NCBI RefSeq assembly: GCF_044704955.1
Contig: NC_091989.1
Coordinates: forward strand, 21,948,001 to 22,012,000
Direction: 5' to 3'
From: Pristiophorus japonicus
Taxonomy: Eukaryota
DNA: 64,000 nt
Every line of letters starts with the position of its first letter. Positions within the stretch are counted from its first letter, which is position 1. A program made the position numbers and the translations under genes. Below are positions 8,170 to 60,866 of the stretch, in pieces. Under the pieces are notes generated by a model. That model was not told where the DNA came from. It ran no database searches and worked only from the letters and a program-made list of their open reading frames with translations.

Positions 8170-9742
8170 GATAGCACGTTTCAGGAGGTGGTCACCCCGC
8201 AGCTTAAAGGTGTGCAGGCAGAGGGGAAGTGGGTGACCACCAGACGTAGTAAGTGTGCTAGGCAGGTAGCGCAGGAGTCCCCCTGTGAGTCCATCTCGCT
8301 TTCAAACCAATATTCACTTCTGAGTATTGGTAAGGATGATGGTGCCTCTGAGGAGTGCAGCTGAGCCAATTCCAAGGCACCACGGGAGGCTCAGCTGCAT
8401 AGAGGGGAGGGACGAAGAATAAAAGAGCCCTAGTGTTAGAAGATTCTATAATTAGGGGAACAGACAGGCGTTTCTGCGGCCGTAGACCTGACACCCGACT
8501 GGTTTTGTGCCTCCCTGGTGCCAGGGTCAAGGATGTCACAGAGCAGACACCGGGCATCCTGGGGGATGGGGGAGGGTAAACAACTAGAGATCGTGGTCCA
8601 TATCGGGACCAACGACATAGGTAAAATAAAGGATGAGGTCCTACAGGAAGAATTCAAGGAGCTCGGAAGAAAATTAAAGGGTAGGACCTCAAAGGTAGTA
8701 ATCTCCGGGTTACTACCGGTGCCACATGCTAATGAGTATAAGAATAGAAGGTTAGAGAGGATGAACACATGGCTGAAAAGTTGGTGTAGGAGGGAGGGCT
8801 TTAAATTCTTGAGGCATTGGGACCGCTTCTGGGGGAGATGGGCACTGTACAAACAGGACGGGTTGCATCTAACCAGCGCCGGGACCATAGCCTTGCGGGG
8901 AGTTTTGCTAGTGTTGTTGGGGAGAGTTTAAACTAGCTTGGCAGTGGGGTGAGAACCTAAGAATGAATTCAAAAGGGAAGGAAGTAAAGCAGAAATTGGA
9001 CAGCAGAAATCTAGAAAGCGAATCTGTAAGACAGAGGAAACAGGGCTTAGTAGTCAGCAAGGAGGTCTTCCTGTGCTGAATGGTATATACTTTAATGCAA
9101 GGAGTATAGTGAATAAAGCGGATGAGTTAAGAGCACAGGTAGACACTTGGGAGCATGACATTATAGCCATTACAGAAACATGGATGAAAGAGGGGCAGGT
9201 TTGGCAGAACAATATTCCTGGTTACAGGATTTTTAGACAAGATAGAGAGGGGGGTAAAAAGTGGGGCGGGGTTGTGGTACTGATTAAAGAAAATATTACA
9301 GCGGTGAGGAGGGATGATATGTTAGCGGGATCATCAAATGAGGCCATATGGGTCGAATTGATAAATTAAAAAAAGGGCAATCACACTGCTGGGTGTGTAT
9401 TATAGACTCCCAAACAGTGGGAGGGAGATAGAGGAGCAAATATGTTGGCAAATTGTTCAAAAACCATAAGGTAGTAATAGTAGCGGATTTTAACTATCCA
9501 AATATTGATTGGAACAAATTTAGTGTGAAGGGTATAGAGGGTGCGGAATTCTTGAAATGCATTCAAGAGAACGTTTTTAGTTAGTATGTAGCAAGCCCAA
9601 CACAAAAGGGGGCGGTCTTGGATATAGTTTTGGGGAATGAAGCTGGGCAGGTTGAAGGGGTATTAGTGGGCGAGCACTTGGATGCCAGTGACCATAATTC
9701 AGTCAGATTCAAGTTGGTTATGGATAAGGACAAGGGTAGGCC

Positions 9743-23516: not shown

Positions 23517-25668
23517 ATGGGGGCAATACCCACCATGCCATAACTTGTGCCAGCCTTCTGCATGATGGTGCTGCGGAGGAGACAATTGATTTGACGTCTT
23601 CACATGAGGATCCTCAGAGCACGTAGGGTGATGGGCAGGAGGCCTTACCCACATTGGGTATATCGAGACAGGCATTCGTACCTGCACCTGAGTGATGCAG
23701 ACTGTGTCAAGAAAGTTGCATTTCCGCAAAGAAACATAGAAAATAGGTGCAAGAGTAGGTCATTCAGCCCTTCGAGCCTGCACCGCCATTCAATAAGATC
23801 ATGGCTGATCATTCCTTCAGTATCCCTTTCTTGCTTTTTCTCCATACCCCTTGACCCCCTTAGCCGTAAGGGCCATATCTAATTCCCTCTTAAATATATC
23901 CAATGAACTGGCATCAATCACTCTCTGCGGCAGGGAATTCCACAGGTTAACAACTCTCTGAGTGAAGAAATTTCTCCTCGTCTCAGTTCTAAATGGCCTA
24001 CCCCTTATCCTAAGGCTATGTGCCCTGGTTCTGGACTTCCTCAACATCGGGAACATTCTTCCCACATCTAACCTGTCCAGTCCCGTCAGAATCTTATACG
24101 TTTCTATGAGATCCCTTCTCATCCTTCTGAACTCCAGTGAATAAAGGCCCAGTTGATCCAGTCTCTCCTCCTATGACAGTCCAGCCATCCCTGGAATCAG
24201 TCTGGTGAACCTTCGCTGCACTCCCTCAATAGCAAGAACGTCCTTCCTCAGATTAGGAGACCAAAACTGAACACAATATTCCAGGTGAGGCCTCACTAAG
24301 GCCCTGTACAACTGCAGTAAGATCTCCTTGCTCCTATACTCAAATCCCCTAGCTATGAAGGCCAACATACCATTTGCCTTCTTTACTGCCTGTTGTACCT
24401 ACATGCCCACTTTCAGTGACTGATGAACCATGACACCCAGGTCTCGTTGCACCTCCCCTTTTCCTAATCTGCCGCCATTCAGATAATATTCTGCCTTCGT
24501 GTTTTTGCCCCCAAAATGGATAACCTCACATATATCCACATTATACTGCATCTGCCATGCATTTGCCCACTCACCTAACCTGTCCAAGTCACCCTGCAGC
24601 CTCTTAGCGTCCTCCTCACAGCTCACACCGCCACCCCGTTTAGTGTCATCTACAAACTTCTTGTAGCTGAGATCTGTGAGTTAGTAAAAGCAGACCCTCA
24701 ACCTAGAAGTGTCAGGAGAACTGCTTTGTCAGTTGAAGTGAAGGTTACAGCTGCACTTTCATTTTATGCATCTGGATCGTTCCAAGCTACAACTGGGGAT
24801 GTGTGCTCTATTTCTCAACATGCAACACATTTCTGCGTTCGGCAGGTGACTGCTGCACTATATGCCCGGAGGAATGACTACATAAAGTTTCCCATGACCA
24901 CCCAGGCAATGCATAATAGGGCTGTGGGCTTCTCCAGGATTGCTGGCTTTCCCAAGGTACAGTGCTGCATTGATTGTACCCACATCGCCTTGCGAGCACC
25001 TTTTAGAGGATTCCGAGATGTACAGGAACAGAAAAGACTTCCACTCCATTAATGTGCAGCTTGTGTGTGACGACATGCATCGCATCATGTCAGTTGATGC
25101 AAGATACCCTGGGAGCACCCATGATGCGTTCATCCTACATGAGAGCATTATATCTGCCACGTTTCAGCAGCAGGCAGAAGGGCACAGCTGGCTATTGGGA
25201 GACCAAGGTTACGGCCTTGCCACCTGGCTCATGATGCCCCTACGCGTAACCCGGACGGAAGCTGACCGGGAATACAACATGTCGCACTTTGCAACGCGCA
25301 GCATAATAGAGAGGACCATTGGCACCTTGAAACAGCGTTTCCGATGCCTGGACCATTCCGGAGGCTACTTGCAATACTCCCCTGAGATTGTTGGTTTGTT
25401 CACTGTTGTGTTTTGCATGCTGCATAACTTAGCCATCATGAGGGAGCAGCAGCTGATAGTAGAAGACCCACCTGAGGTGAGAGTGGCTGATGATAATGAT
25501 GAGGAAGATGCAGATGATGATGATGAGGAGGAGGAGGACGAGGATGAGGAAGCCATGCAACTACCTGAACCCGGAGCATGACAGCGGAGGAGAGCGGGCC
25601 GTCATTCCCCTTTAACGATTGCTCGAGTCTTGCGTCAGCAGCTCATCTGTGAATGTTTTGCTGCCTGA
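23517..25668 (+). pseudogene. Harbinger-A DDE transposase, split by a CR1 and frameshifts
   Basis: KVTAALSFYASGSFQ, IDCTHI, YPGSTHDA, LLGDQGY, IIERTIGTLKQRFRCL, acidic C-terminal tract. Confidence 0.92.
23730..24660 (-). mobile_element. 5'-truncated CR1 inside the Harbinger transposase
   Basis: ORF2 C-terminal motifs and tail; target FRKE|VVAEIC rejoins across it. Confidence 0.92.
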
Positions 25669-41802: not shown

Positions 41803-44800
41803 CATAGAAACATAGAAAATAGGTGCAGGAGCAGGCCATTCAGCCCTTCTAGCCTGCACCGCCATTCAACGAGTTCATGGCTGAACATGAAACTTCAGTA
41901 CCCACTTCCTGCTTTCACGCCATACCCCTTGATCCCCCGAGTAGTAAGGACTTCATCTAACTCCCTTTTGAATATATTTAGTGAATTGGCCTCAACTACT
42001 TCCTGTGGTAGAGAATTCCACAGGTTCACCACTCTCTGGGTGAAGAAATTTCTCCTTATCTCGGTCCTAAATGGCTTACCCCTTATCCTTAGACTGTGAC
42101 CCCTGGTTCTGGACTTCCCCAACATTGGGAACATTCTTCCTGCATCCAACCTGTCCAAACCCGTCAGAATTTTAAACGTTTCTATGAGGTCCCCTCTCAC
42201 TCTTCTGAACTCCAGTGAATACAAGCCCAGTTGATTCAGTCTTTCTTGATAGGTCAGTCCCACCATCCCGGGAATCAGTCTGGTGAATTTTCGCTGCACT
42301 CCCTCAACAGCAAGTATGTCCTTCCTCAAGTTAGGAGACCAAAACTGTACACAATACTCCAGGTGTGGCCTCACCAAGGCCCTGTACAACTGTAGCAACA
42401 CCTCCCTGCCCCTGTACTCAAATCCCCTCGCTATGAAGGCCAACATGCCATTTGCTTTCTTAACCGCCTGCTGTACCTGCATGCCAACCTTCAATGACTG
42501 ATGTACCATGACACCCAGGTCTCGTTGCACCTTCCCTTTTCCTAATCTGTCACCATTCAGATAATAGTCTGTCTCTCTGTTTTTACCACCAAAGTGGATA
42601 ACCTCACATTTATCCACATTATACTTCATCTGCCACGCATTTGCCCACTCACCTAATCTATCCAAGTCACTCTGTAGCCTCATAGCATCCTCCTCGCAGC
42701 TCACACTGCCACCCGACTTAGTGTCATCCGCAAATTTGGAGATACTACATTTAATCCCCTCGTCTAAATCATTAATGTACAATGTAAACAGCTGGGGTCC
42801 CAGCACAGAACCCTGTGGTACCCCACTAGTCACTGCCTGCCATTCCGAAAAGTACCCATTTACTCCTACTCTTTGCTTCCTGTCTGACAACCAGTTCTCA
42901 ATCCACGTCAGCACACTACCCCCAATCCCATGTGCTTTAACTTTGCACATTAATCTCCTGTGTGGGACCTTGTCGAAAGCCTTCTGAAAGTCCAAATATA
43001 CCACATCAACTGGTACTCCTTTGTCCACTTTATTGGAAACATCCTCAAAAAATTCCAGAAGATTTGTCAAGCATGATCTCCCTTTTACAAATCCATGCTG
43101 ACTTGGACCTATCATGTCACCATTTTCCAAATGCGCTGCTATGACATCCTTAATAATTGATTCCATCATTTTACCCATTACTGAGGTCAGGCTGACCGGT
43201 CTATAATTCCCTGCTTTCTCTCTCCCTCCTTTTTTAAAAAGTGGGGTTACATTGGCTACCCTCCACTCGATAGGAACTGATCCAGAGTCAATGGAATGTT
43301 GGAAAATGACTGTCAATGCATCCGCTATTTCCAAGGCCACCTCCTTAAGTACTCTGGGATGCAGTCCATCAGGCCCTGGGGATTTATCGGCCTTCAATCC
43401 CATCAATTTCCCCAACACAATTTCCCGACTAATAAAGATTTCCCTCAGTTCCTCCTCCTTAATAGACCCTCTGACCACTTTTATATCCGGAAGGTTGTTT
43501 GTGTCCTCCTTAGTGAATACTGAACCAAAGTACTTGTTCAATTGGTCTGCCATTTCTTTGTTCCCCGTTATGACTTCCCCTGATTCTGACTGCAGGGGAC
43601 CTACGTTTGTCTTTACTAACCTCTTTCTCTTTACATACCTATAGAAACTTTTGCAATCCGCCTTAATGTTCCCTGCAAGCTTCTTCTCGTACTCCATTTT
43701 CCTTACCCTAATCAAACCCTTTGTCCTCCTCTGCTGAGTTCTAAATTTCTCCCAGTCCCCAGGTTCGCTGCTATTTCTGGCCAATTTGTATGCCACTTCC
43801 TTGGCTTTAATAATATCCCTGATTTCCCTAGATAGCCACGGTTGAGCCACCTTCCCTTTTTTATTTTTACGACAGACAGGAATGTACAATTGTTGTAATT
43901 CATCCATGCGTTCTCTAAATGTCTGCCATTGCCCATCCACAGTCAACCCCTTAAGTATCATTAGCCAATCTATCTTAGCCAATTCATGCCTCATACCTTC
44001 AAAGTTACCCTTCTTTAAGTTCTGGACCATGGTCTCTGAATTAACTGTTTCATTCTCCATCCTAATGCAGAATTCCACCATATTATGGTCACTCTTCCCC
44101 AAGGGGCCTCGCACAATGAGATTGCTAATTAATCCTCTCTCATTACACAACACCCAGTCTAAGATGGCCTCCCCCCTAGTTGGTTCCTCGACATATTGGT
44201 CTAGAAAACCATCCCTTATGCATTCCAGGAAATCCTCCTCCACCGTATTGCTTCCAGTTTGGCTAGCCCAATCTATGTGCATATTAAAGTCACCCATTAT
44301 AACTGCTGCACCTTTATTGCATGCACTCCTAATTTCCTGTTTGATGCCCTCCCCAACATCACTACTACTGTTTGGAGGTCTGTACACAACTCCCACTAAC
44401 GATTTTTGCCCTTTAGTGTTCTGCAGCTCTACCCATATAGATTCCACATCATCCAAGCTAATGTCTTTCCTAACTATTGCATTAATCTCCTCTTTAACCA
44501 GCAATGCTACCCCACCTCCTTTTCCTTTTATTCTATCCTTCCTGAATGTTGAATACCCCTGGATGTTGAGTTCCCAGCCCTGATCATCCTGGAGCCACGT
44601 CTCCGTAATCCCAATCACATCATATTTGTTAACATCTATTTGCACAATTAATTCATCCACCTTATTGCGGATACTCCTTGCATTAAGACACAAAGCCTTC
44701 AGGCTTGCTTTTTTAACACCCTTTGTCCTTTTAGAATTTTGCTGTACAGTGGCCCTTTTTGTTCTTTGCCTTGGGTTTCTCTGCCCTCCACTTTTCCTCA

Positions 44801-45069
44801 TCTCCTTTCTGTCTTTTGCTTTTGCCTCCTTTTTGTCTCCCTCTGTCTCCCTGTATAGGTTCCCATCCCCCTGCAATATTAGTTTAACTCCTCCCCAACA
44901 GCACTAGCAAACACTCCCCCTAGGACATTGGTTCCGGACCTGCCCAGGTGCAGACCGTCCGGTTTGTACTGGTCCCACCTCCCCCAGAACCGGTTCCAAT
45001 GCCCCAAGAATTTGAATCCCTCCCTGCTGCACCACTGCTCAAGCCATGTATTCATCTGCGCTATCCTGC
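41803..45069 (-). mobile_element. Young CR1 LINE truncated within ORF1, inserted in the Gypsy-5 protease
   Basis: Target AMVQ|VSHG rejoins across it; tail at 41803. Confidence 0.96.
41895..44876 (-). CDS. CR1 ORF2 (AP endonuclease and reverse transcriptase), open frame of 993 codons; true start uncertain
   Basis: CLNARS, ITETW, GDFN, SDH, QHGF, GVPQGSVLGP, KFADD with no stops. Confidence 0.92.
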   Translation of the reverse strand: MQGDGNLYRETEGDKKEAKAKDRKEMRKSGGQRNPRQRTKRATVQQNSKRTKGVKKASLKALCLNARSIRNKVDELIVQIDVNKYDVIGITETWLQDDQGWELNIQGYSTFRKDRIKGKGGGVALLVKEEINAIVRKDISLDDVESIWVELQNTKGQKSLVGVVYRPPNSSSDVGEGIKQEIRSACNKGAAVIMGDFNMHIDWASQTGSNTVEEDFLECIRDGFLDQYVEEPTRGEAILDWVLCNERGLISNLIVRGPLGKSDHNMVEFCIRMENETVNSETMVQNLKKGNFEGMRHELAKIDWLMILKGLTVDGQWQTFRERMDELQQLYIPVCRKNKKGKVAQPWLSREIRDIIKAKEVAYKLARNSSEPGDWEKFRTQQRRTKGLIRVRKMEYEKKLAGNIKADCKSFYRYVKRKRLVKTNVGPLQSESGEVITGNKEMADQLNKYFGSVFTKEDTNNLPDIKVVRGSIKEEELREIFISREIVLGKLMGLKADKSPGPDGLHPRVLKEVALEIADALTVIFQHSIDSGSVPIEWRVANVTPLFKKGGREKAGNYRPVSLTSVMGKMMESIIKDVIAAHLENGDMIGPSQHGFVKGRSCLTNLLEFFEDVSNKVDKGVPVDVVYLDFQKAFDKVPHRRLMCKVKAHGIGGSVLTWIENWLSDRKQRVGVNGYFSEWQAVTSGVPQGSVLGPQLFTLYINDLDEGIKCSISKFADDTKSGGSVSCEEDAMRLQSDLDRLGEWANAWQMKYNVDKCEVIHFGGKNRETDYYLNGDRLGKGKVQRDLGVMVHQSLKVGMQVQQAVKKANGMLAFIARGFEYRGREVLLQLYRALVRPHLEYCVQFWSPNLRKDILAVEGVQRKFTRLIPGMVGLTYQERLNQLGLYSLEFRRVRGDLIETFKILTGLDRLDAGRMFPMLGKSRTRGHSLRIRGKPFRTEIRRNFFTQRVVNLWNSLPQEVVEANSLNIFKRELDEVLTTRGIKGYGVKAGSGY

Positions 45070-47213: not shown

Positions 47214-50200
47214 TCACAGGTTGAGTCTCTCTGGTGGTTTACACTCTCTTGTAGAGCGCCTGAGTTGGGGCTCCGGTTGTTGGGCGCTGGCCTGAGTGCC
47301 TGCTGTTTGCGGTGCCTCAGGCCTATCCGGACTGCCCACAGTGATTGGGCTCTCCTCCCTTTGGTTCCGGTGTTCGGTCACCTGTGGTGGAGTGAACTCT
47401 ATATCGTGTTCTTCCTCTGCTTCTTCTATGGGGTTGCTGAACTTCCTTTTTGTTTGATCCACGTGTTTGCGGCAGATTTGGCCATTGGTAAGTTTAACTA
47501 CCAGAATCCTATTTCCCTCTTTGGCAATCACAGTGCCTGCGAGCCATTTGGGCCCTGCAGCGTAGTTGAGGACAAAAACCGGATCATTTACATCAATACA
47601 TCGCGCCCTCGCATTCCTGTCATGGTAGTCATATTGTGACTGGTGCCTGCTCTCAACAATTTCTTTCATGGTGGGGTGTATAAGGGATAGCCGGGTTTTG
47701 AGCGTCTTTTTCATTAGCAGCTCTGTGGGTGGAACTCCTGTGAGCGAGTGTGGTCGGGATCTATAGGCCAACAGGAGGCATAAGCGGCTTTGTAGGGAAC
47801 CCCCTTGGATTCTGAGCATCCCCTGTTTGATTAACTGCACTGCTCGTTCCGCCTGGCCGTTTGAGGCCGGCTTGAACGGTGTCGTTCTGACATGGTTAAT
47901 TCCATTGCCTGCCATGAAGTCCTGGAATTCAGTGCTTGTGAAGCACGGGCCATTGTCGCTGACCAAGACGTCCGGTAGACCGTGGGCAGCGAACATTGCC
48001 CGTAGACTTTCTACCGTGGCAGAGGATGTGCTTGAATTTAAAATGTCACACTTGATCCATTTGGAGTAGGCATCTACTACAACCAAAAACATTTTTCCCA
48101 TGAAAGGACCTGCGTAGTCCACATGGATGGGTGACCAAGGCTTGGCGGGCCATGGCCAGGGGCGAAGGGGGGCTTCCCTGGTCGCATTGCCCAGCTGGGC
48201 ACACGTGTTGCACCTGCGAACACAAAGTTCCAGATCTGCGTCTATCCCTGGCCACCAAATGTGTGACCTGGCAATTGCCTTCATCATGACAATGCCCGGG
48301 TGCTCATTGTGGAGTTCTCTGATGAACACCTCTCTGCCCATCTGGGGCAGGACTACGCGGTTTCCCCACAGTAGGCAATTGGCCTTAATCAAGAGTTCAT
48401 CCCTGCGTCTGTGAAATGGTTTAAATTCCTCAGGGCATGCCCTGTACGTGGCTGCCCAGTCCCCATTCAGGACACATTTCTTGACTAGAGACAATAGCGG
48501 GTCTCTATTTGTCCAGACTTTAAATTGACGGGCTGTCACGGGTGAGCCTTCGCTTCCGAAAGCTTCAACAGCCATGACCATCTCAGCAGCATGCTCAGTA
48601 GTCCCTTCAGTGGTGGCTAGTGGGAGCCTGCTGAGTGCATCGGCGCAGTTTTCAGTGCCCGGTCTGTGCCGAATTGTATAGTCATAGGCGGCTAACGTGA
48701 GTGCCCACCTCTGTATGCGGGCCGATGCGTTTGCATTTATGGCCTTGTTGTCAGCCAAAAGGGACGTTAGGGGTTTGTGATCTGTCTCCAGCTCAAATTT
48801 CCTGCCAAACAGGTACTGGTGCATTTTCTTTACAGCATATACACATGCGAGCGCCTCCTTTTCTACCATCCCGTAACCCCTTTCTGCCTGGGACAGACTC
48901 CTGGAGACATAAGCTACCGGCTGTAACTGACCCTTGACACTGACATGCTGCAACACACACCCAACACCATGGGATGACGCATCGCACGTTAACACAAGTT
49001 TCTTACATGGGTCATATAGTGTTAACAGAGTGTTGGAACATAACAAATTGCATGCTTTATTAAAAGCCCTTTCCTGGCTGTCCCCCCAGACCCATTCGCG
49101 ACCTTTGCGTAGGAGCGCGTGTAGCGGCTCTAGCAGCGTGCTCAATTTGGGAAGAAAGTTACCAAAATAGTTCAGGAGCCCCAGGAATGAACGCAGCTCC
49201 ATCGTGTTACGGGGTCTGGGTGCTCTCTGGATCGCTTCCGTCTTGGACGCAGTAGGGCTGATCCCATCTGCTGCTACCCTCATCCCCAGGAATTCTACCT
49301 CTGGAGCTAGGAAGACGCACTTCGCCTTTTTCAGTCGCAGCCCTACCCAGTCCAGTCTGCGTAGCACCTCCTCCAGGTTGTGGAGGTGTTCTTCAGTATC
49401 GTAACCCGTGATGAGGATGTTGTCCTGAAAAACCACCGTCCATGGAATCGACTTGAGGAGGCTTTCCATATTTCGTTGGACGATCGCGGCGGCCGAGCAA
49501 ATCCCGAACGGACATCTGTTGTACTCAAACAACCCCTTCTGTGTCGTGATGGTGGTCAGCTTCTTCGACTCACTCGCCAGCTCCTGGGTCATGTAAGCTG
49601 AGGTCAGGTCCAATTTTGAAAAAAGTTTGCCACTGGATAGCGTCGCAAAGAGGTCCTCTGCTCTCGGTAGCGGGTACTGGTCTTGGAGTGACACCCGATT
49701 GATGGTGGCCTTGTAATCACCACATATCCTGACCGACCCATCCGCCTTGAGCACCGGCACGATCGGGCTCGCCCAGTCACTGAATTCGACTGGCGAGATG
49801 ATGCTGTCCCTCAGCAGGTGGTCCAATTCGCATTCTATCTTTTCCCGCATCACATATGGCACCGCTCTGGCCTTGTGGTGTACTGGTCTGGCGTCCGGCT
49901 TTATGTGAATCACTACCTTGGCCCCCATGAAAGTGCCGATGCCGGGTTGAAATAATGAGTCAAATTTGTCCAGGATCTGTGAGCATGATACTCGCTCCAC
50001 AGAGGAAATTGCATTGACATCACCCCATTTCCAGTTCATGACAGCAAGCCAACTCCTCCCCAGTAGTGCGAGACCGTCACCTGGGACAATCCAGAGTGGC
50101 AACCTGTTCTCCGAATCTTTGTGGGTCACGACTACAGTGGCGCTGCCTAGCACCGGAATGATCTGCTTTGTGTAAGTCCGTAGCTGTGCGTCAATCGGCG

Positions 50201-50837
50201 ATAATTTTGGCCTCCTGGCCTTGGACGCCCACCATTTTTCGAACTGTTTGATACCCATCAGGGACTGGCTGGCTCCCGTGTCTAGCTCCATTGATACTGG
50301 GATGCCGTTGAGGAGCACTTTCATCATTATTGGTGGCGTCCTGGTATGTGAACTGTATACATGCTCCACATGAACTCGCTGAACTTCAGCTTCCAGCGAT
50401 TTCCCCCAGCGTTCATTTCTGCAATTTCTGCAGGTATTTTGCTCATCTCTGGAAACTCCAGCTGAGTGTGTGCTTCCACGCCTCCAACATGAGCTGTTGT
50501 TGGAAACAAAAGGTCCCTTGCCAGTCGATCGTCCCTGACTGCCCCTGTGACTGTCCTTGAATGCGCCATTAACAGGTGTTGATGGCCCCATTACTGGCCG
50601 CATTGTCCCTTGCAATGGTGTGAATCGCAGTTCAACTTGCCATTGTCTCTGTCGAACTCCCCCTCTGGGTTCGACTACATGTTGGGGCATGCCCGATTGC
50701 CCTTGTCTGCCTGGAGAACTGTGTGCTGCTTTAACAATATTGAATCTCTGTCCCAACCATTCCTTAACACAGTACCTCTTTTCTGTTCTGCTCGTGGCCA
50801 TGCTCGCGTGGTTTAAATCCCAATTTCTCGTCGCCAT
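47214..50837 (-). CDS. Gypsy polyprotein: truncated Gag, protease, RT, RNase H, integrase (1207 codons)
   Basis: LDTGAS, VFQDNIL, CDASS, HNEHPG...CNTC, HVDY, SDNG, AER; Gag capsid region missing. Confidence 0.88.
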   Translation of the reverse strand: MATRNWDLNHASMATSRTEKRYCVKEWLGQRFNIVKAAHSSPGRQGQSGMPQHVVEPRGGVRQRQWQVELRFTPLQGTMRPVMGPSTPVNGAFKDSHRGSQGRSTGKGPFVSNNSSCWRRGSTHSAGVSRDEQNTCRNCRNERWGKSLEAEVQRVHVEHVYSSHTRTPPIMMKVLLNGIPVSMELDTGASQSLMGIKQFEKWWASKARRPKLSPIDAQLRTYTKQIIPVLGSATVVVTHKDSENRLPLWIVPGDGLALLGRSWLAVMNWKWGDVNAISSVERVSCSQILDKFDSLFQPGIGTFMGAKVVIHIKPDARPVHHKARAVPYVMREKIECELDHLLRDSIISPVEFSDWASPIVPVLKADGSVRICGDYKATINRVSLQDQYPLPRAEDLFATLSSGKLFSKLDLTSAYMTQELASESKKLTTITTQKGLFEYNRCPFGICSAAAIVQRNMESLLKSIPWTVVFQDNILITGYDTEEHLHNLEEVLRRLDWVGLRLKKAKCVFLAPEVEFLGMRVAADGISPTASKTEAIQRAPRPRNTMELRSFLGLLNYFGNFLPKLSTLLEPLHALLRKGREWVWGDSQERAFNKACNLLCSNTLLTLYDPCKKLVLTCDASSHGVGCVLQHVSVKGQLQPVAYVSRSLSQAERGYGMVEKEALACVYAVKKMHQYLFGRKFELETDHKPLTSLLADNKAINANASARIQRWALTLAAYDYTIRHRPGTENCADALSRLPLATTEGTTEHAAEMVMAVEAFGSEGSPVTARQFKVWTNRDPLLSLVKKCVLNGDWAATYRACPEEFKPFHRRRDELLIKANCLLWGNRVVLPQMGREVFIRELHNEHPGIVMMKAIARSHIWWPGIDADLELCVRRCNTCAQLGNATREAPLRPWPWPAKPWSPIHVDYAGPFMGKMFLVVVDAYSKWIKCDILNSSTSSATVESLRAMFAAHGLPDVLVSDNGPCFTSTEFQDFMAGNGINHVRTTPFKPASNGQAERAVQLIKQGMLRIQGGSLQSRLCLLLAYRSRPHSLTGVPPTELLMKKTLKTRLSLIHPTMKEIVESRHQSQYDYHDRNARARCIDVNDPVFVLNYAAGPKWLAGTVIAKEGNRILVVKLTNGQICRKHVDQTKRKFSNPIEEAEEEHDIEFTPPQVTEHRNQREESPITVGSPDRPEAPQTAGTQASAQQPEPQLRRSTRECKPPERLNL
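50827..50836 (-). promoter_or_regulatory. Primer-binding site TGGCGACGAG, complementary to a tRNA-Ser 3' end
   Basis: Directly after the 5' LTR; decayed versions in Gypsy-1, -2 and -3. Confidence 0.75.
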
Positions 50838-51950
50838 TGATAGGTCCTTACTATACAGTATAAATACACACGAGGCCCATGCTTGAGAGAAGGTCAGTCT
50901 GTGACCTGTCCTTTATTCCTTAGCACTCAAGTGATGAAGGTGGGTGGAGCTTCCCCTTTTGTACCTGAAGGTCCAGGTTAGGAGTGTCTCCCACCTAGTG
51001 GTCGTTGTTCTCACAGTGTACAACTTAGGTCAGATTATACATGGGTTATAATGCTGGTTGAATACATGACAACCTTAGTCTCTTTAATACTACTCCAGTG
51101 TACCTAAGCAGCATGGCAGACAACCTTTTATACTCCCTTGCATGAGGTGTGCAGGTGACCCTTGGGCCTCCAACAGTTGCGCACTCTGATGGCAAGTCTT
51201 ACACAGTGACAATGTTTACATACATAACATCAACCAAACACATTGCACCACACTCACTGACACACTTCCCTTTCTCTTTCAGGTTAAGATGGTTCATAAC
51301 TGGAGCAAGCAGGAGCAAACAGGCAGGGGGAGGGGCAGGGGGGATGGCGGTGGGGGGGGGGGGGGGGTTAAGCATAGCTACAGAATCTGACCCAGCTGGA
51401 GAAGACAGTGCTAGAGATAATTGGAGGGGCTGTCACTGAGGCCGTGGCGATCCCAAGAACCAGTCCAGCCTGTGCATGAAGAAGTAGAGGAGGAGAGTGA
51501 TGGAAAAGAGACATCGACACTCAATATGACACTCACAGGCACCAGCTCAGAAAATGGCACTGCCTGAACTTTAGAGAGTAGTGCCGGTGCCAGCTCCCTG
51601 GAGGGCGAGATCGCACACAAGTTCTGCTGCACAGGACTCAGATGAGGACATCGATAGGGTGGCCTTCAGAAGCAGGGTGATGGGCATGCACACAGAAATG
51701 CTTGGTGCAATGGCAGGCCTGCCAGAGAGTCTCTTGTCACTGTCAAAGAGCCTGGAGGAGATCAGTTCATAAATTGCACAGAGCTTTGCATGGAGCTTGG
51801 AGGCCATGATTTCCAGGATGGAAGATATGGCCAAGTCCATTAGAGCAATGTGGACCCCACCATGATGCTGGCTGTGACGGGCGATGTTGCACCTTCCATT
51901 GCAGCATAATTGGAAGTGACCAAATATCCGAGTGCTGCACTGGTAGCTAA

Positions 51951-55560: not shown

Positions 55561-58011
55561 AGGACCCAAGTGCCGAGCAGCCCCGACTCGAGCGACCCCG
55601 ACCCGAGCAGTCCCGACCTCAGTGAGTCCGAGCGGCCCGCCCTAAGCGCTGAGCGGCCCCGACCCGAGCGGCCCAGCCCTGAGCGGCCCCGGCCGGAGGT
55701 AGGCGAGGACTTCACTTCTGGTGAGGAGCTTAGCCCTCATCCGTGCAGTTAAGTGGTTGGCTGTTTGATTGGTAAGTATCTCTCTCTTTTACTTTTTAAT
55801 TAGATTTTAATTAGATAGGTCTAATTAAAGGGATGGCAGGGCAGCTCAGTCCTGTGGAATGCATGTCCTGCGGCATGTGGGAAGTCCTGGACGCTTTGCA
55901 TGGCCTAGACAACTATGTGTGTAGGAGGTGTCTCCAGCTTCAACTACTCGAGCTCCATGTTTCGAAGCTTGAACTGCGGCTGGAGTCAATACGATGCATC
56001 CGCGAGGCAGAGAGCTACGTGGATAGCACGTTTCAGGAGGTGGTCATCCCATAGCTTAAAGGCATGCAGGTAGAAGGGAAGTGGGTGACCACCAGATGGA
56101 GCAAGCATGCTAGGCAGGTAGTACAGGAGTCCCTCTATGAGTCCATCTTGCTTTCTAACTGATATTCTCTTCTGAGCACCGGTGAGGACGATGGTGCCTC
56201 TGGGGACTGCAACCAGAGCCAAGTCCAAGGCACCACGGGTGGTTCAGCTGCACTGGGGGGAGGGACAAAGAATAAGAGAGCTGTAGCGGTAGGGGATTCA
56301 ATAGTTATGGGAACAGAGAGGCGTTTCTGTGGCCGTAGATATGACTCCAGGATAGTATGGTGCCTCCCTGGTGTCAGGGTCAAGAATGTCACAGAGCGGA
56401 CGCAGGGATTTCTGGGGGGAGAGAGCAAATAGCTAGAGGTCGTGGTCAATATCGGGACCAAGACATAGGTAGAAAGAGGGATGAGGTCCTGCAGGCAGAA
56501 TTTAGGGAACAGGAGAAAAATTAAAGGGTAGGACCTCAAAGATAGTAATCTCCAATTTACTACCGGTGCCACATGCTAATGAGTATAAGAATAGGATAGA
56601 CAGGATGAACGCATGGCTGGAGAATTGGTGTAGGAGGGAGGGCTTTAAATTCCTGAGGCATTGGGACCACTTCTGGGGGAGATGGGACCTGTACAAACCG
56701 GATGGGTTGCACCTCAACAGTGCTGGCACCAATATCCTCATGGGGAGATTTGCTAGTGCTGTTGGGGAGAGTTTAAGATAACTTGGCAGGGAGGTGGGAA
56801 CCTGAGAACAAATTCAATAGGGTAGTAAGGCTGAAATTGGATAGCAAGAAGTTAGAAAATATAAGACAGAGGAAACAAGGGTTAATAAGTAGTAATCAAG
56901 GAGGTCTTCCTGTGCTAAATGGTATATACTTTAATGCAAGGAGTATAGCAAATAAGGCGGATGAGCTAAGAGCACAGGTAGAAACTTGGTAGTGTGACAT
57001 TATAGTCATTACAGAGACATGGCTGAAAGAGGGGCAGGTTTGGCAGCTCAATATTCCTGGTTGCAGGATTTTTAGACAAGACAGAAGGTGGGGGGTAAAA
57101 AGGGGGGTGAGTCACGGTATTGATTAAAGAAACTATTACAGCGGTGAGGAGGGATGATATGTTAGAGGGATCATCAAATAAGGCCATACGGGTTGAATTG
57201 AAAAATAAAAAAGGGGTGATCACACTGCTGGGCATTTATTATAGACCCCCAAACAGTGGGAGGAAGATAGAGGAGTAAATATATAGGAACATTTCTGTGA
57301 AATCCAAAAACCATAGGGCAGTAACAATAGGAGAAATATAGTGTGAAGGGTATAGAGGATGCAGAATTCTTAAGATGCATTAAAAGAACTTTTTTAGTCA
57401 GTATGTAACAAGCCCAACATGAGAGGGGGCGGTTTTGGATTTAGTTTTAGGGAATGAAGCTGGACAGGTGGAAGGGGTATTAGTGGGAGAGCACTTGGGC
57501 GTCAGTGACCATAATTCAGTCAGATTCAAGTTAGTTATGGATAAGGATAAGGATAGACCAGGAATAAAAGTCCCAAATTGGGAAAAAGTTAACCGCTAAG
57601 TTGAGGAGTGATTTGGCCACAGTGGACTAGAAACAGCTATTTGTGGGTAAATCAATGTCGGAACAGTGGGAGGCATTCAAGGAGGAGATCTGGAGGGCTC
57701 AGGGCAAACATGTGCCCTTAAAGGAAAAGGCTGGGAATAACAATTCCAGAGCCCCCTGGATGTCTAGGGACTTCCAGGGGAGGATAAAGAAAAAAAGAGA
57801 AGCTTATGTCATATGCTGACAGCTAAATACTGTCGAATCTTTGGAGGAATATAGAAAGTTCAGAGGTAAAATTAAAAAGGATATTAGGAATGCTAAGAGA
57901 GAGCATGAAAAATTTTTGACAAGTAAAATTAAGGAAATCCCAAAGATATTCTATAAATATATTAAGAGCAAGAGGATAACTAAAGAAAGTGTAGGGCGTA
58001 TTAGAGACCAT

Positions 58012-60866
58012 GGGCTAGATTTTCCACTTTTGTACTTATCGCCCCAAAATAGGCGTTATTTCCGGCATGGGCGGTAAAAAAGGGTTTTCGCCCATTCTCA
58101 AAGCACCTAGTCTCCATTTTTTAAAATGCGATATGAAATGGGCGGTAGTGTTAAATCTCGCTGATGTTTTGCCTAAAAGTGTCGCCGTCCTTAGCAACGG
58201 CATGGCAACGTTCGATTCCTGCGATTCAGGATGTCAAAGGTCATCATGACATGCACAGAAGAGGAGAAAGAGAGAGAGAGAGCTCAGAGGGACTGAAGGC
58301 GTGTGTGGCTATGGTGTGTGCTTGTTTGGCTGTTGTGGGAAGCACGAGGGAGATTCACCAGCAGAAAAAAGCCTCAGCACCAAGAACATAGTTGGCACCG
58401 AGTTTTTGTCCAACACATAAGATATAACATGGAAGGGATGGTGGAGGCCCTGGAGCTGTAGCCAGGAACGCTGGTGGCAGAGGGCTCCCAGTGGTCCCGG
58501 AGCACGGCACTGCACCCTAAGGTTGCCGCACCTCGATTGCCAACCACACGAGAGCCAGCAGCAACATCTTGCTTCTGGCTCGGAGCACGATCCCACCTTA
58601 GGACCGTCCTCTCCCGTATCCGTCCAAGCAGCGTTTCGGCCGTCATCCACCCTTCCCCCACCCCCCAATGAAGCATCGCCTGAGGAGCTCCTTGGCCAGG
58701 CGGCTTGCAGTCAGAAGGGGAAGGGGTAGAGGTGTGGAGGAGAAGTGGGGGTGGGGGGGGGGAAGGATTTTTTTTTACAGAGATATTTATGATTTCAGAC
58801 AAATGTTCGGTTTAAAATATTTTTTATTTAACAAAACCTTGTTGCGCATTGGCTCAGATAGCTGCACCGTTACACACTGGTGATTCCTTAACATCAAAGG
58901 ATATAATGACACTTAACTTCAATCAACTTAAACTTTAACTGTCACCAAGGTGATGCCCACCATTGATGTATCACCTGCAAACCCAGCAGTGTGTCAGCCT
59001 TGTAAATAACACCAACGTTCTTTCAGGCAAAGCGGTCATTGATGAGCTCATGACATAAGGTTCTTGCAGCTATCATGCACCACGGGCACTTTAATGCGGT
59101 GTACAGGGGTACGGGGGCATGGCTTCAGCGTCAACCTGATTGTCTGGGCTGATGTCAACATTCGTCTCCTCGTCCTCCTCTTCCTCGCTCTGGTGAGGTG
59201 GACTGTCAGACTCATCAGGCAATTCTTGTCCCCTCCTGATAGCCAAGTTGTGCAACATGTAGCACACCACCACGAATTGAGCTACCTGTTCAGGGTGGTA
59301 TTGGAAGTCGCCTCCTGAATGGTCCAGGCATCTAAAGCGCTGTTTCAGCACTCCAATGGTTTTCTCCACGATATTGCGAGTGGCTCTGTGGCTCTCGTTG
59401 TATTGCCTCTCGGCTTCGATGTGGGTGTCACACAGGGGGCTCATCAGCCAGGTGGCGAGGCCATATCCTTTGTCACCAAGCATCCAGCATTGACCTTGTG
59501 GCTGATTGGTAAACAAGACAGATACAGTGCTCTCATGCATCATGTGAGCATCATGGATGCTGCCCGGAAATTGAGCATTCACTGCCAGTATAATTTGCTG
59601 GTGGTCAACAACCAGTTGGACATTCAGGGAGTGGAATCCCTTGCAGTTCCTGAAAGCCTCTACATCCTGAAAAGGTGCCTGCATCGCGATGTGCGTACAG
59701 TCTATTGCTCCCTGCACCTTGGGGAAGTTTGCAATTCTGGAGAATCCTAGAACCCTCTCACTCTGTGCCTCCCTGGTCAAAAGGAAGCTGATCAAGTCCC
59801 TCCTGCATGCGTACAGGGCTTCAGTGACCTGTCTAATGCAGTAATGTGTGGCATGCTGAGAAAGTCCGCAAATGTCGCCAGCTGTGGCCTGAAAAGAACC
59901 CGAGGTGTAGAACGATAGTGCCACGGTGACGGACAGTGCAGTACTGATGATGCTGACAGGCTGCAGATCTCCCGTTATCAGCTGGCATACCTCAGTGATA
60001 ACCACTTTGTGGAAGCGCAGTCTCTGAAGGCAGGTGGTGTCGGGCAAGTCGAGGTAAGACTGCTTCTAGCTGTACTTGCAGGGGGTGGTCCTCCTCATCA
60101 GTCTGGCACGTCTTACATTGGGCACATAATGCTGTGGAGCGTACCTTCGGTGATCTTGAGTCTGCTGCATGTAATTGGTCATCAAGAGAGGGTGAGAAAA
60201 GACAGGCCCCATTGCAATAGCTCTCTGTTTTCCACCGATTGGTCACAAACAATGAATGTCCCGACGAAAACACCTATTCAATTCCAATCAGTCACAGTAT
60301 GGTCAAGATATTGGTACAGATGTTCACATCAACTCCACAGTACATCCGAACTCCTCCGAGGTTGAAGCACAGCAGCCTTTTAAAGGATACAATATGTGAT
60401 GTAGAACATGGCGTCCATAACTCTGTGATTAATTCCGGTTAGTTCCACTTTTTCTGGGTGTTTTTTTCGGTGAGCGATATTGTGGGCAATATGTGTGCGA
60501 GGTGGTGAAGGTGACGCTGGGCGATCTCATGGCCGCTACTTTCGGTAAATATGCTCTTTACGACAAAAAAAAGTGGGCGGGTGGTATTATTGAATCTCGG
60601 TGTTAAATCAGTGCGGAAATTAATGCTGGGCAATATTATGGGCATTGATTTCGCCCATTCTGATGATTCCGCACAAAAAAAGTGGGCAGACGGTATTATT
60701 TTTTCCCGGCGTTAAGCACATGGGGAAAGTAACACTTGCCGATAAGTTTCCGAAAAATGCCCATCAGTTTCCATTTTCTGACTAAATGGACGATAACTGG
60801 GCGTTATATGTCATTTCAGCGGTAAAGTGGGCGTGAAGCATGCAAAAAAAGTGGAGGTTCTAGCCC
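58012..60866. mobile_element. Harbinger-B DNA transposon with the Myb-like gene largely deleted
   Basis: Inverted termini GGGCTAGA...TCCACTTTT / AAAAGTGGA...TCTAGCCC; 3-bp target duplication CAT. Confidence 0.92.
59091..60212 (-). pseudogene. Harbinger-B DDE transposase, catalytic region open for 318 codons, stop near the N-terminus
   Basis: GAIDCTHI, FPGSIHDA, LGDKGY, IVEKTIGVLKQRFRCL. Confidence 0.9.

Follow-up and report, generated by a model that had tools for sequence, protein, structure and literature searches.

A conserved slippery heptamer at the ORF1/ORF2 junction of CR1 elements points to -1 programmed ribosomal frameshifting

How ORF2 of LINEs is translated has been described as an open question (PMC3894237), reinitiation being the route in the cases worked out. 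Passages of PMC2881922 and PMC3894237 describe mammalian L1 and silkworm SART1 as LINEs with a bicistronic RNA in which output of ORF2 depends on translation of ORF1, and a review states that a -1 frameshift is needed for ORF2 of the Dictyostelium elements TRE5-A and TRE3-A, which are non-LTR retrotransposons of the APE type (PMC5911963). The heptamer U_UUA_AAC is listed among the most shifty ones (PMC5009743), and G_UUA_AAC is given as the site of equine arteritis virus (EAV), where it is paired with a strong pseudoknot (PMC3835772); excerpts of these two papers bear out what the initial annotation of this DNA had stated, namely that both heptamers serve as slippery sites in nidoviruses. CR1-group elements are reported as the dominant retrotransposons of most vertebrates, occupying 22-34% of shark and ray genomes (PMC13343379). 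The portions of the CR1 literature examined, including PMC13343379 and PMC4316615, hold nothing on how ORF2 is translated, and no report of a CR1 frameshift was found in the literature searched, the founding descriptions (Haas 1997, Kajikawa 1997) lying outside that search. Here we compare with these systems the ORF1/ORF2 junction of a CR1 element found in the window, that is, the whole stretch of 64,000 nucleotides analysed, which comes from a 5.9-Gb genome.

The CR1 copies in the window and their junctions

On the minus strand, ORF1 of the main copy ends with GAG GAG TTA AAC TAA, placing the heptamer directly before the stop, and the -1 frame from the heptamer reads VKLILQGDGNL, so that ORF2 is open across the junction. 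Stop to stop this frame extends from 44903 to 41895 (minus strand; 1002 aa); the CLNARS motif of its endonuclease starts at 44690, and its Pfam matches are Exo_endo_phos (1.3e-14) and RVT_1 (8.3e-33). Four G-runs follow, starting 10, 17, 30 and 40 nt after the heptamer (44871-67, 44864-62, 44851-49 and 44841-39). A sister copy carries the same heptamer, GTTAAAC, at 30913-30907 (minus strand). The initial annotation had pointed out the ORF1 end with its heptamer, the open -1 frame, the G-runs and the sister heptamer, and each was confirmed in the sequence (Table 1), though the sister ORF2 proved to be out of phase: 187 nt separate its heptamer from the endonuclease as against 198 nt in the main copy, a difference of 11 nt, and one of its GGG runs is lost.

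Table 1. Positions in the window of the CR1 features discussed in the text
Feature	Position	Strand	Remark or basis
ORF1 3' remnant (CR1, SGNH/GDSL esterase domain, last ~62 codons, ending ...AVGEELN-stop)	44879..45067	-	5'-truncated; homologues with PF13472
Slippery heptamer G_TTA_AAC, in ORF1 register	44882..44888	-	derived form of T_TTA_AAC
ORF1 stop TAA, directly 3' of the heptamer	44879..44881	-	TAA/TAG in all 14 groups; TGA also common in lineage A
G5 run, candidate 3' stimulator	44867..44871	-	starts 10 nt after the heptamer; position kept in vertebrate-type groups
Three further GGG runs, completing a canonical G-quadruplex pattern	44839..44864	-	sequence
First in-frame AUG of ORF2, codon 29 from the heptamer (GAG AUG A)	44799..44801	-	rival start
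ORF2 in the -1 frame: 66-codon basic linker, APE endonuclease, reverse transcriptase	41895..44888	-	997 codons, stop-free
CR1 3' UTR, ending in tandem TTTCTATG octamers, without poly(A)	41803..41894	-	sequence
Sister copy junction, G_TTA_AAC TAA	30904..30913	-	decayed downstream
Junction of family B (second CR1 family), T_TTA_AAC TAG	8927..8936	+	sequence
Family B junction, decayed (TTTAAGA TAA)	56772..56781	+	sequence

Searched alone, the 62-aa ORF1 remnant had no Pfam match; an intact copy of the family (L003) matches vertebrate proteins bearing PF13472, which points to an esterase-type ORF1, and for the family B copy in the window the Pfam match is Lipase_GDSL_2 (1.6e-11). Among named proteins, those of sharks and rays come closest to the ORF1 protein, which suggests a cartilaginous fish as the likely host. 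Tandem TTTCTATG octamers end both the main and the sister copy at the 3' side, and an octamer microsatellite 3' end without poly(A) is described as a feature of vertebrate CR1 (PMC4316615). Judged by its architecture (APE-RT ORF2, esterase ORF1, octamer 3' end) and its ORF1 homologues, the element is a vertebrate-type CR1 LINE. Its family, here called lineage A, is young and large, given that 149 of the 150 scored genome matches to the ORF1 remnant are 100% identical over 62 aa and that the 33-base junction pattern in its G form has 27,363 exact matches in the genome. Collinear matches to the protease region of a Gypsy-type element adjoin the main copy at either end (45067 and 41803, minus strand), so the copy was inserted into such an element. 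Since it keeps only about 62 ORF1 codons, it cannot itself make a fusion protein, and what follows concerns the family.

Among the 440 stop-to-stop frames of at least 60 codons in the window, three end in a slippery-type heptamer, by a list extended to include G_UUA_AAC, and two of the three are these CR1 junctions; the real test is conservation across lineages, not this chance count. Intact family members have the same junction in 30/30 cases, a result that tests codons only because the query included L-N.

The window also holds a Gypsy-type pol with an open frame of 1232 codons (47214-50912, minus strand), whose protease, RT, RNase H and integrase motifs were recognised by eye, and several decayed relatives of it elsewhere. 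Two further frames, 24579-25581 (plus) and 59091-60065 (minus), look like fragments of a Harbinger/PIF transposase.

Conservation of the heptamer and of the reading phase

Lineages were sampled with queries stopping short of the heptamer, in 60 blind 10-kb stretches, and with a pattern blind to synonymous choice. The codon test covered 157 copies in 14 groups, from the element's own genome and from metagenome fragments, and kept only copies with a stop 26 codons after DGLHL, those with an indel or a lost stop being dropped; the groups are related (three are subfamilies of A and two of B), so their counts are not 14 independent trials. TTA AAC were the commonest last two ORF1 codons in 14/14 groups. 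The codon before them takes nine forms (GCT, GGT, CAT, ACT, AGT, GAT, TAT, TTT and GAG), varying at bases 1 and 2 and having T as its third base in 13 of the 14 groups. The heptamer is T_TTA_AAC, of the X_XXY_YYZ type, in these 13 groups, and G_TTA_AAC, which is not a perfect XXX, in the family of the main copy, whose G form is derived. At the two Leu of DGLHL five codons are used each, and among ten lineage representatives the other shared Leu codons are identical in 19/96 pairs and two-fold codons in 70/113, indicating that other synonymous sites are near saturation.

The synonymous-blind pattern gave 75 metagenome/GTDB matches, six of which carry T_TTA_AAC. Only four of the 75 have a downstream endonuclease; all four are among these six and have it in the -1 frame, three of them having seeded the profile, and the remaining two T_TTA_AAC contigs end early. 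None of the other matches, 52 distinct ones and for the most part SGNH-like proteins of bacteria, carries T/G_TTA_AAC, and they use 21 heptamers with many codon pairs; seven of these 52 controls have T_TTA_AAT, likewise a slippery form, which speaks against the frameshift. An ORF1 alignment search of viral contigs found no relatives.

A reading that needs no recoding takes the motif as a by-product of protein constraint, ORF1p ending in L-N, together with shared ancestry. L-N is indeed nearly invariant: among 120 listed ORF1 homologues, from sharks, rays, chimaera, coelacanth, bony fish, frogs, turtles and squamates by source name, 80 (one of them misaligned) reach the homologous C-terminus, with L in 77 and N in 79 at the last two places, and an L-N terminus with the same spacing from DGxHL can occur in bacterial SGNH hydrolases as well. 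Such a constraint, however, fixes neither TTA AAC nor the wobble base of a codon that is free to vary, and it is set against synonymous sites near saturation elsewhere and 21 heptamers in 52 controls. Of the last 12 residues, the one before L-N varies most among the 80 homologues (13 amino acids), and yet K/E/Q/M/W, whose codons cannot end in U, occupy it in 3/80 as against 144/640 at positions -11 to -4 (p 1e-5; 0.025 after thinning to 36 sequences). We regard protein constraint as a hardly credible account, which the codon tests and controls already largely refute. The junction heptamer is a real and deeply conserved feature of CR1, and its conservation as nucleotides, judged from these comparisons, exceeds what coding would need.

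Within lineage A, counted by eye among 200 listed matches, TTA is kept in 200 and AAC in 196, while the preceding codon (GGT, GAT, GAG, GGG) and the stop (TAA, TGA, TAG) vary. The free breaking of the heptamer by synonymous change, which the initial annotation had named as evidence against its proposal, was not seen in these matches, and the comparison of junctions it had suggested gave TTA AAC as the commonest last codons in every group. In the same upstream context, position 1 of the heptamer is G in 27,363 exact matches vs a base other than G in 9,058, and among 100 listed non-G matches it is A in four and C in none. In four contig sets guessed to be RNA, from other organisms, the best-supported differences among those listed include G to T at the first heptamer base and none at the next six; these were not counted as evidence, and such contigs are silent on translation.

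The -1 phase is kept across lineages whose linkers differ in length. The modal distance from heptamer to endonuclease is 198 nt in A, 165 nt in B and 207 nt in C and D, single elements have 99, 141, 189 and 219 nt, and two variants of A have 210 and 441 nt, all of them multiples of three. Nine of ten lineage representatives are stop-free over the linker (shuffle probabilities 0.002-0.17 each). Decayed families are often out of phase, with 22/43 copies in phase in B and 8/15 in C; E/F are unresolved, with 1/5.

The two A variants are amplified (L347, L038 and L065 with the 441-nt linker; L338, L050 and L079 with the 210-nt linker; 6/80 copies each). In both, a different endonuclease start follows the A-type ORF1 with its junction, and they look like recombinant masters; the 441-nt variant has a short NARS-type motif, a spacer and then a second start, staying in the -1 frame throughout. 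In family B, eleven distinct copies are 2 nt short, seven on contigs C23/C3985 and four scattered. We considered and rejected an active out-of-frame family, as the seven look like local duplicates; on contig C23 of genome G000, near-identical family B copies (L097, L112-L115, L277 and others) share small deletions, likely through local amplification.

Start codons, downstream elements and routes to ORF2

In most copies read, a stop interrupts the -1 frame 2-8 codons upstream of the heptamer, and the overlap contains no AUG, so ORF2 cannot start upstream at an AUG. Downstream, 80 of the first 100 listed G-form places of lineage A were fetched, 69 align without indel, and 66 of these 69 have an in-frame AUG at codon 19, codon 29 or both. 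The AUG of the main copy lies 37 codons before the endonuclease motif. Of 2,659 matches lacking AUG29, the first 100 were inspected, and AUG19 is present with a strong context in 99 of them. An in-frame AUG is also usual in families C and D, at codons 43 and 52. Lineage A might therefore make ORF2p mainly by termination and reinitiation at an in-frame AUG 47-77 nt after the ORF1 stop, its G-form heptamer being a weakened inheritance from frameshifting ancestors. The hand-over pattern of the AUGs (19 only, both, 29 only), the position of both upstream of the endonuclease and the predominance of G over non-G at heptamer position 1 would all suit this route, as would the linker, in which no amino-acid constraint is seen (shared changes lack third-position bias, with 6/8/4 before and 11/6/9 after codon 29), and reinitiation is the route described for L1 and SART1 in the part of PMC2881922 consulted. 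By composition, however, an in-frame AUG is expected anyway with probability about 0.6, so that the lineage A AUG is not strong evidence. Against reinitiation, no amplified variant breaks the frame from heptamer to codon 29, which are 87 nt apart in 46 of 49 measurable copies with three differing singletons; a TGG-to-TGA change at codon 4 occurs in 6/80, close to the rate at neighbouring G sites (1-4/80), and TTA AAC is unchanged across the A subfamilies.

Nor can reinitiation explain family B or the elements L152, L154 and L188. Of 20 in-phase family B copies, 17 lack a Met ahead of the endonuclease motif, L111 having its first at codon 132, inside the endonuclease domain, and L152, L154, L188 and L174 lack one too; starting at an AUG would thus cut off the endonuclease start in all of these. 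Dependence on the downstream AUG, which the initial annotation had set against its own proposal, is a live rival in lineage A. As the main route of lineage A we consider reinitiation unlikely; with an AUG in nearly all copies it may contribute there, perhaps beside a weaker shift at the G form.

The conserved 3' feature is a single run of 4-7 G that starts 7-12 nt after the heptamer. It is present in most copies of A, B, C, D and F, in two of four E copies and in L154, L174, L186 and L224, with shuffle probabilities of 0.008-0.11 per group. A strong conserved stem after the heptamer was not predicted in the vertebrate-type copies folded with ViennaRNA, which does not model pseudoknots; the 60 nt after the stop of the main copy fold at -4.1 kcal/mol (z -0.5), or -6.5 with a G-quadruplex allowed. 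In L152 (z -2.7) and L188 (z 0.1), two divergent, AT-rich, CR1-like metagenome elements that share the heptamer and stop, the place of the G-run is taken by a hairpin, its stem beginning 9-10 nt downstream. We take L174 and L186 to be bird-like and L152 and L188 to be invertebrate-like. L224 resembles named turtle proteins; this vertebrate CR1 sits on a 257-nt contig in a Jeotgalibacillus assembly, likely as contamination, and the CR1 ORF1 protein P0007, labelled Pseudomonas aeruginosa, is likely contamination too.

The initial annotation had proposed a G-quadruplex as stimulator, which fared poorly. Among the 18 folded copies, the four-run pattern occurs in five of seven from lineage A (the sister copy and L050 lack it) and in one poly-G copy; the remaining 10 do not show it. 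Excerpts of PMC3919603 put the peak of G-quadruplex-stimulated frameshifting at about 7%, with spacers of 6-8 nt and short loops, vs a spacer of 10 nt and loops up to 10 nt in lineage A. The pattern being family-specific and its spacer off the optimum, we rejected the quadruplex as a general conserved stimulator. A search for a long-range partner of the G-run in ORF2 or the 3' UTR gave a best duplex of -17.5 kcal/mol, within the shuffled range of -14.0 to -18.9, and such a partner was rejected. From the sequence, a splice-site or branch-point reading of the junction was also discarded, the base after the heptamer giving AG only in TAG families, as was polymerase slippage, a long homopolymer being absent.

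Heptamer, stop and G-run could also form a signal (TTTAAAC-stop-G-run) for AUG-independent reinitiation or another termination-coupled event, which would yield free ORF2p and no fusion. Mammalian L1 ORF2 initiation is reported as AUG-independent (PMC5009743, PMC1965478, both in excerpt), the stop always adjoins the heptamer, and there is no strong classical stimulator; such a signal would, however, predict neither the X_XXY_YYZ pattern in the ORF1 register nor a -1 phase kept from the heptamer over linkers of 99-441 nt. We consider it very unlikely.

A -1 programmed ribosomal frameshift at the junction is the best explanation and, in our judgement, probably the right one, supported by conservation of the heptamer as nucleotides, by the constant -1 phase over unequal linkers and by the AUG-less lineages. 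From the observed site, phase and conservation we infer slippage, its rate, its stimulator and the fusion product as follows. Most ribosomes would stop and release ORF1p of about 315 aa, and a minority would slip back one base with tRNA-Leu and tRNA-Asn on UUA AAC (tandem slippage) and then read C-UA as Leu in place of the stop. The product would be an ORF1p-ORF2p fusion of ~1,310 aa (315 + 995), with a predicted junction ...GEELN/LILQGDGNL or ...GEEL/KLILQ.... The pause would come from the adjacent stop and a 3' element 8-11 nt downstream, presumably the G-run, acting as structure or as a protein-binding site, in vertebrate-type lineages and the hairpin in the two metagenome elements. Lineage A, with G as first base (the EAV form), may have a second, reinitiation route through its in-frame AUG. 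The Gag-Pol-like fusion suggested by the initial annotation gains from cross-lineage conservation, phase and AUG-less lineages, and the AUG of lineage A counts against it; the fusion itself would follow from the slippage we infer.

A bolder version, which we hold tentatively and think doubtful, is that all members of the esterase-type CR1 clade, in sharks, sauropsids and hosts further afield, produce their RT as a fusion via U_UUA_AAC, stimulated in vertebrates by a protein-bound short G-run ~10 nt downstream and not by a stem, in a regulated Gag-Pol-like ratio; a candidate for the bound protein may be a host G-run binder or ORF1p itself.

Three protein records (P0121, P0038 and P0078) continue from the ORF1 esterase through FKL in the -1 frame; P0121, a ray gene model named hydroxyacid oxidase 2, does so through GFKL and reaches the endonuclease. 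A natural lineage with a single fused ORF was rejected: a search for longer homologues gave four proteins, and P0121 is one predicted model, not a lineage. L015:1-1689 is an in-frame chimera of the RT part of ORF2 and the 3' half of ORF1, produced by one CR1 copy abutting another.

Comparison with described systems

If the frameshift is real, the CR1 enzyme would be synthesised already joined to the ORF1 esterase. This would fix the stoichiometry, and cis-preference would be reached by another route than in L1. Annotations that begin ORF2 at its first Met would truncate the endonuclease of AUG-less families, and constructs for testing CR1 retrotransposition would have to include the native junction. 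The T and G forms of the heptamer, and AUG-less vs AUG-bearing families, offer ready-made natural comparisons.

Canonical vertebrate CR1 elements, with esterase ORF1 and APE-RT ORF2, share the architecture and 3' octamer end of this element in the accounts given by PMC13343379 and PMC4316615, and what we propose is a known mechanism in a group in which we found no description of it. CR1 would not be the first LINE with a -1 frameshift, in view of the Dictyostelium TRE5-A and TRE3-A (PMC5911963, in excerpt), although these belong to a different clade, have an unrelated ORF1 and are compared here through the statement of the review. L1 and SART1 differ in using termination-reinitiation, through UAAUG in SART1 and a spacer in L1, which yields free ORF2p with no slippery site and no fusion. 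A downstream element without a stem has a parallel in the arterivirus nsp2 frameshift, where passages of PMC5009743 describe a short unstructured motif, CCCANCUCC, 11 nt 3' of the shift site; that motif is C-rich and bound by nsp1beta and a poly(C)-binding protein, so that for the CR1 G-run it serves as an analogy only. The closest likeness in the site itself is to the nidovirus ORF1a/1b junction, where excerpts of PMC3835772 and PMC5009743 give identical heptamers (U_UUA_AAC in coronaviruses and most arteriviruses, G_UUA_AAC in EAV) at the end of the upstream ORF, with the polymerase in the -1 frame. Nidovirus sites have a strong pseudoknot 3-7 nt downstream, whereas the CR1 junction has instead a G-run that starts 8-11 nt downstream, with no comparable stem predicted by a model that leaves pseudoknots aside, and its host is a LINE.
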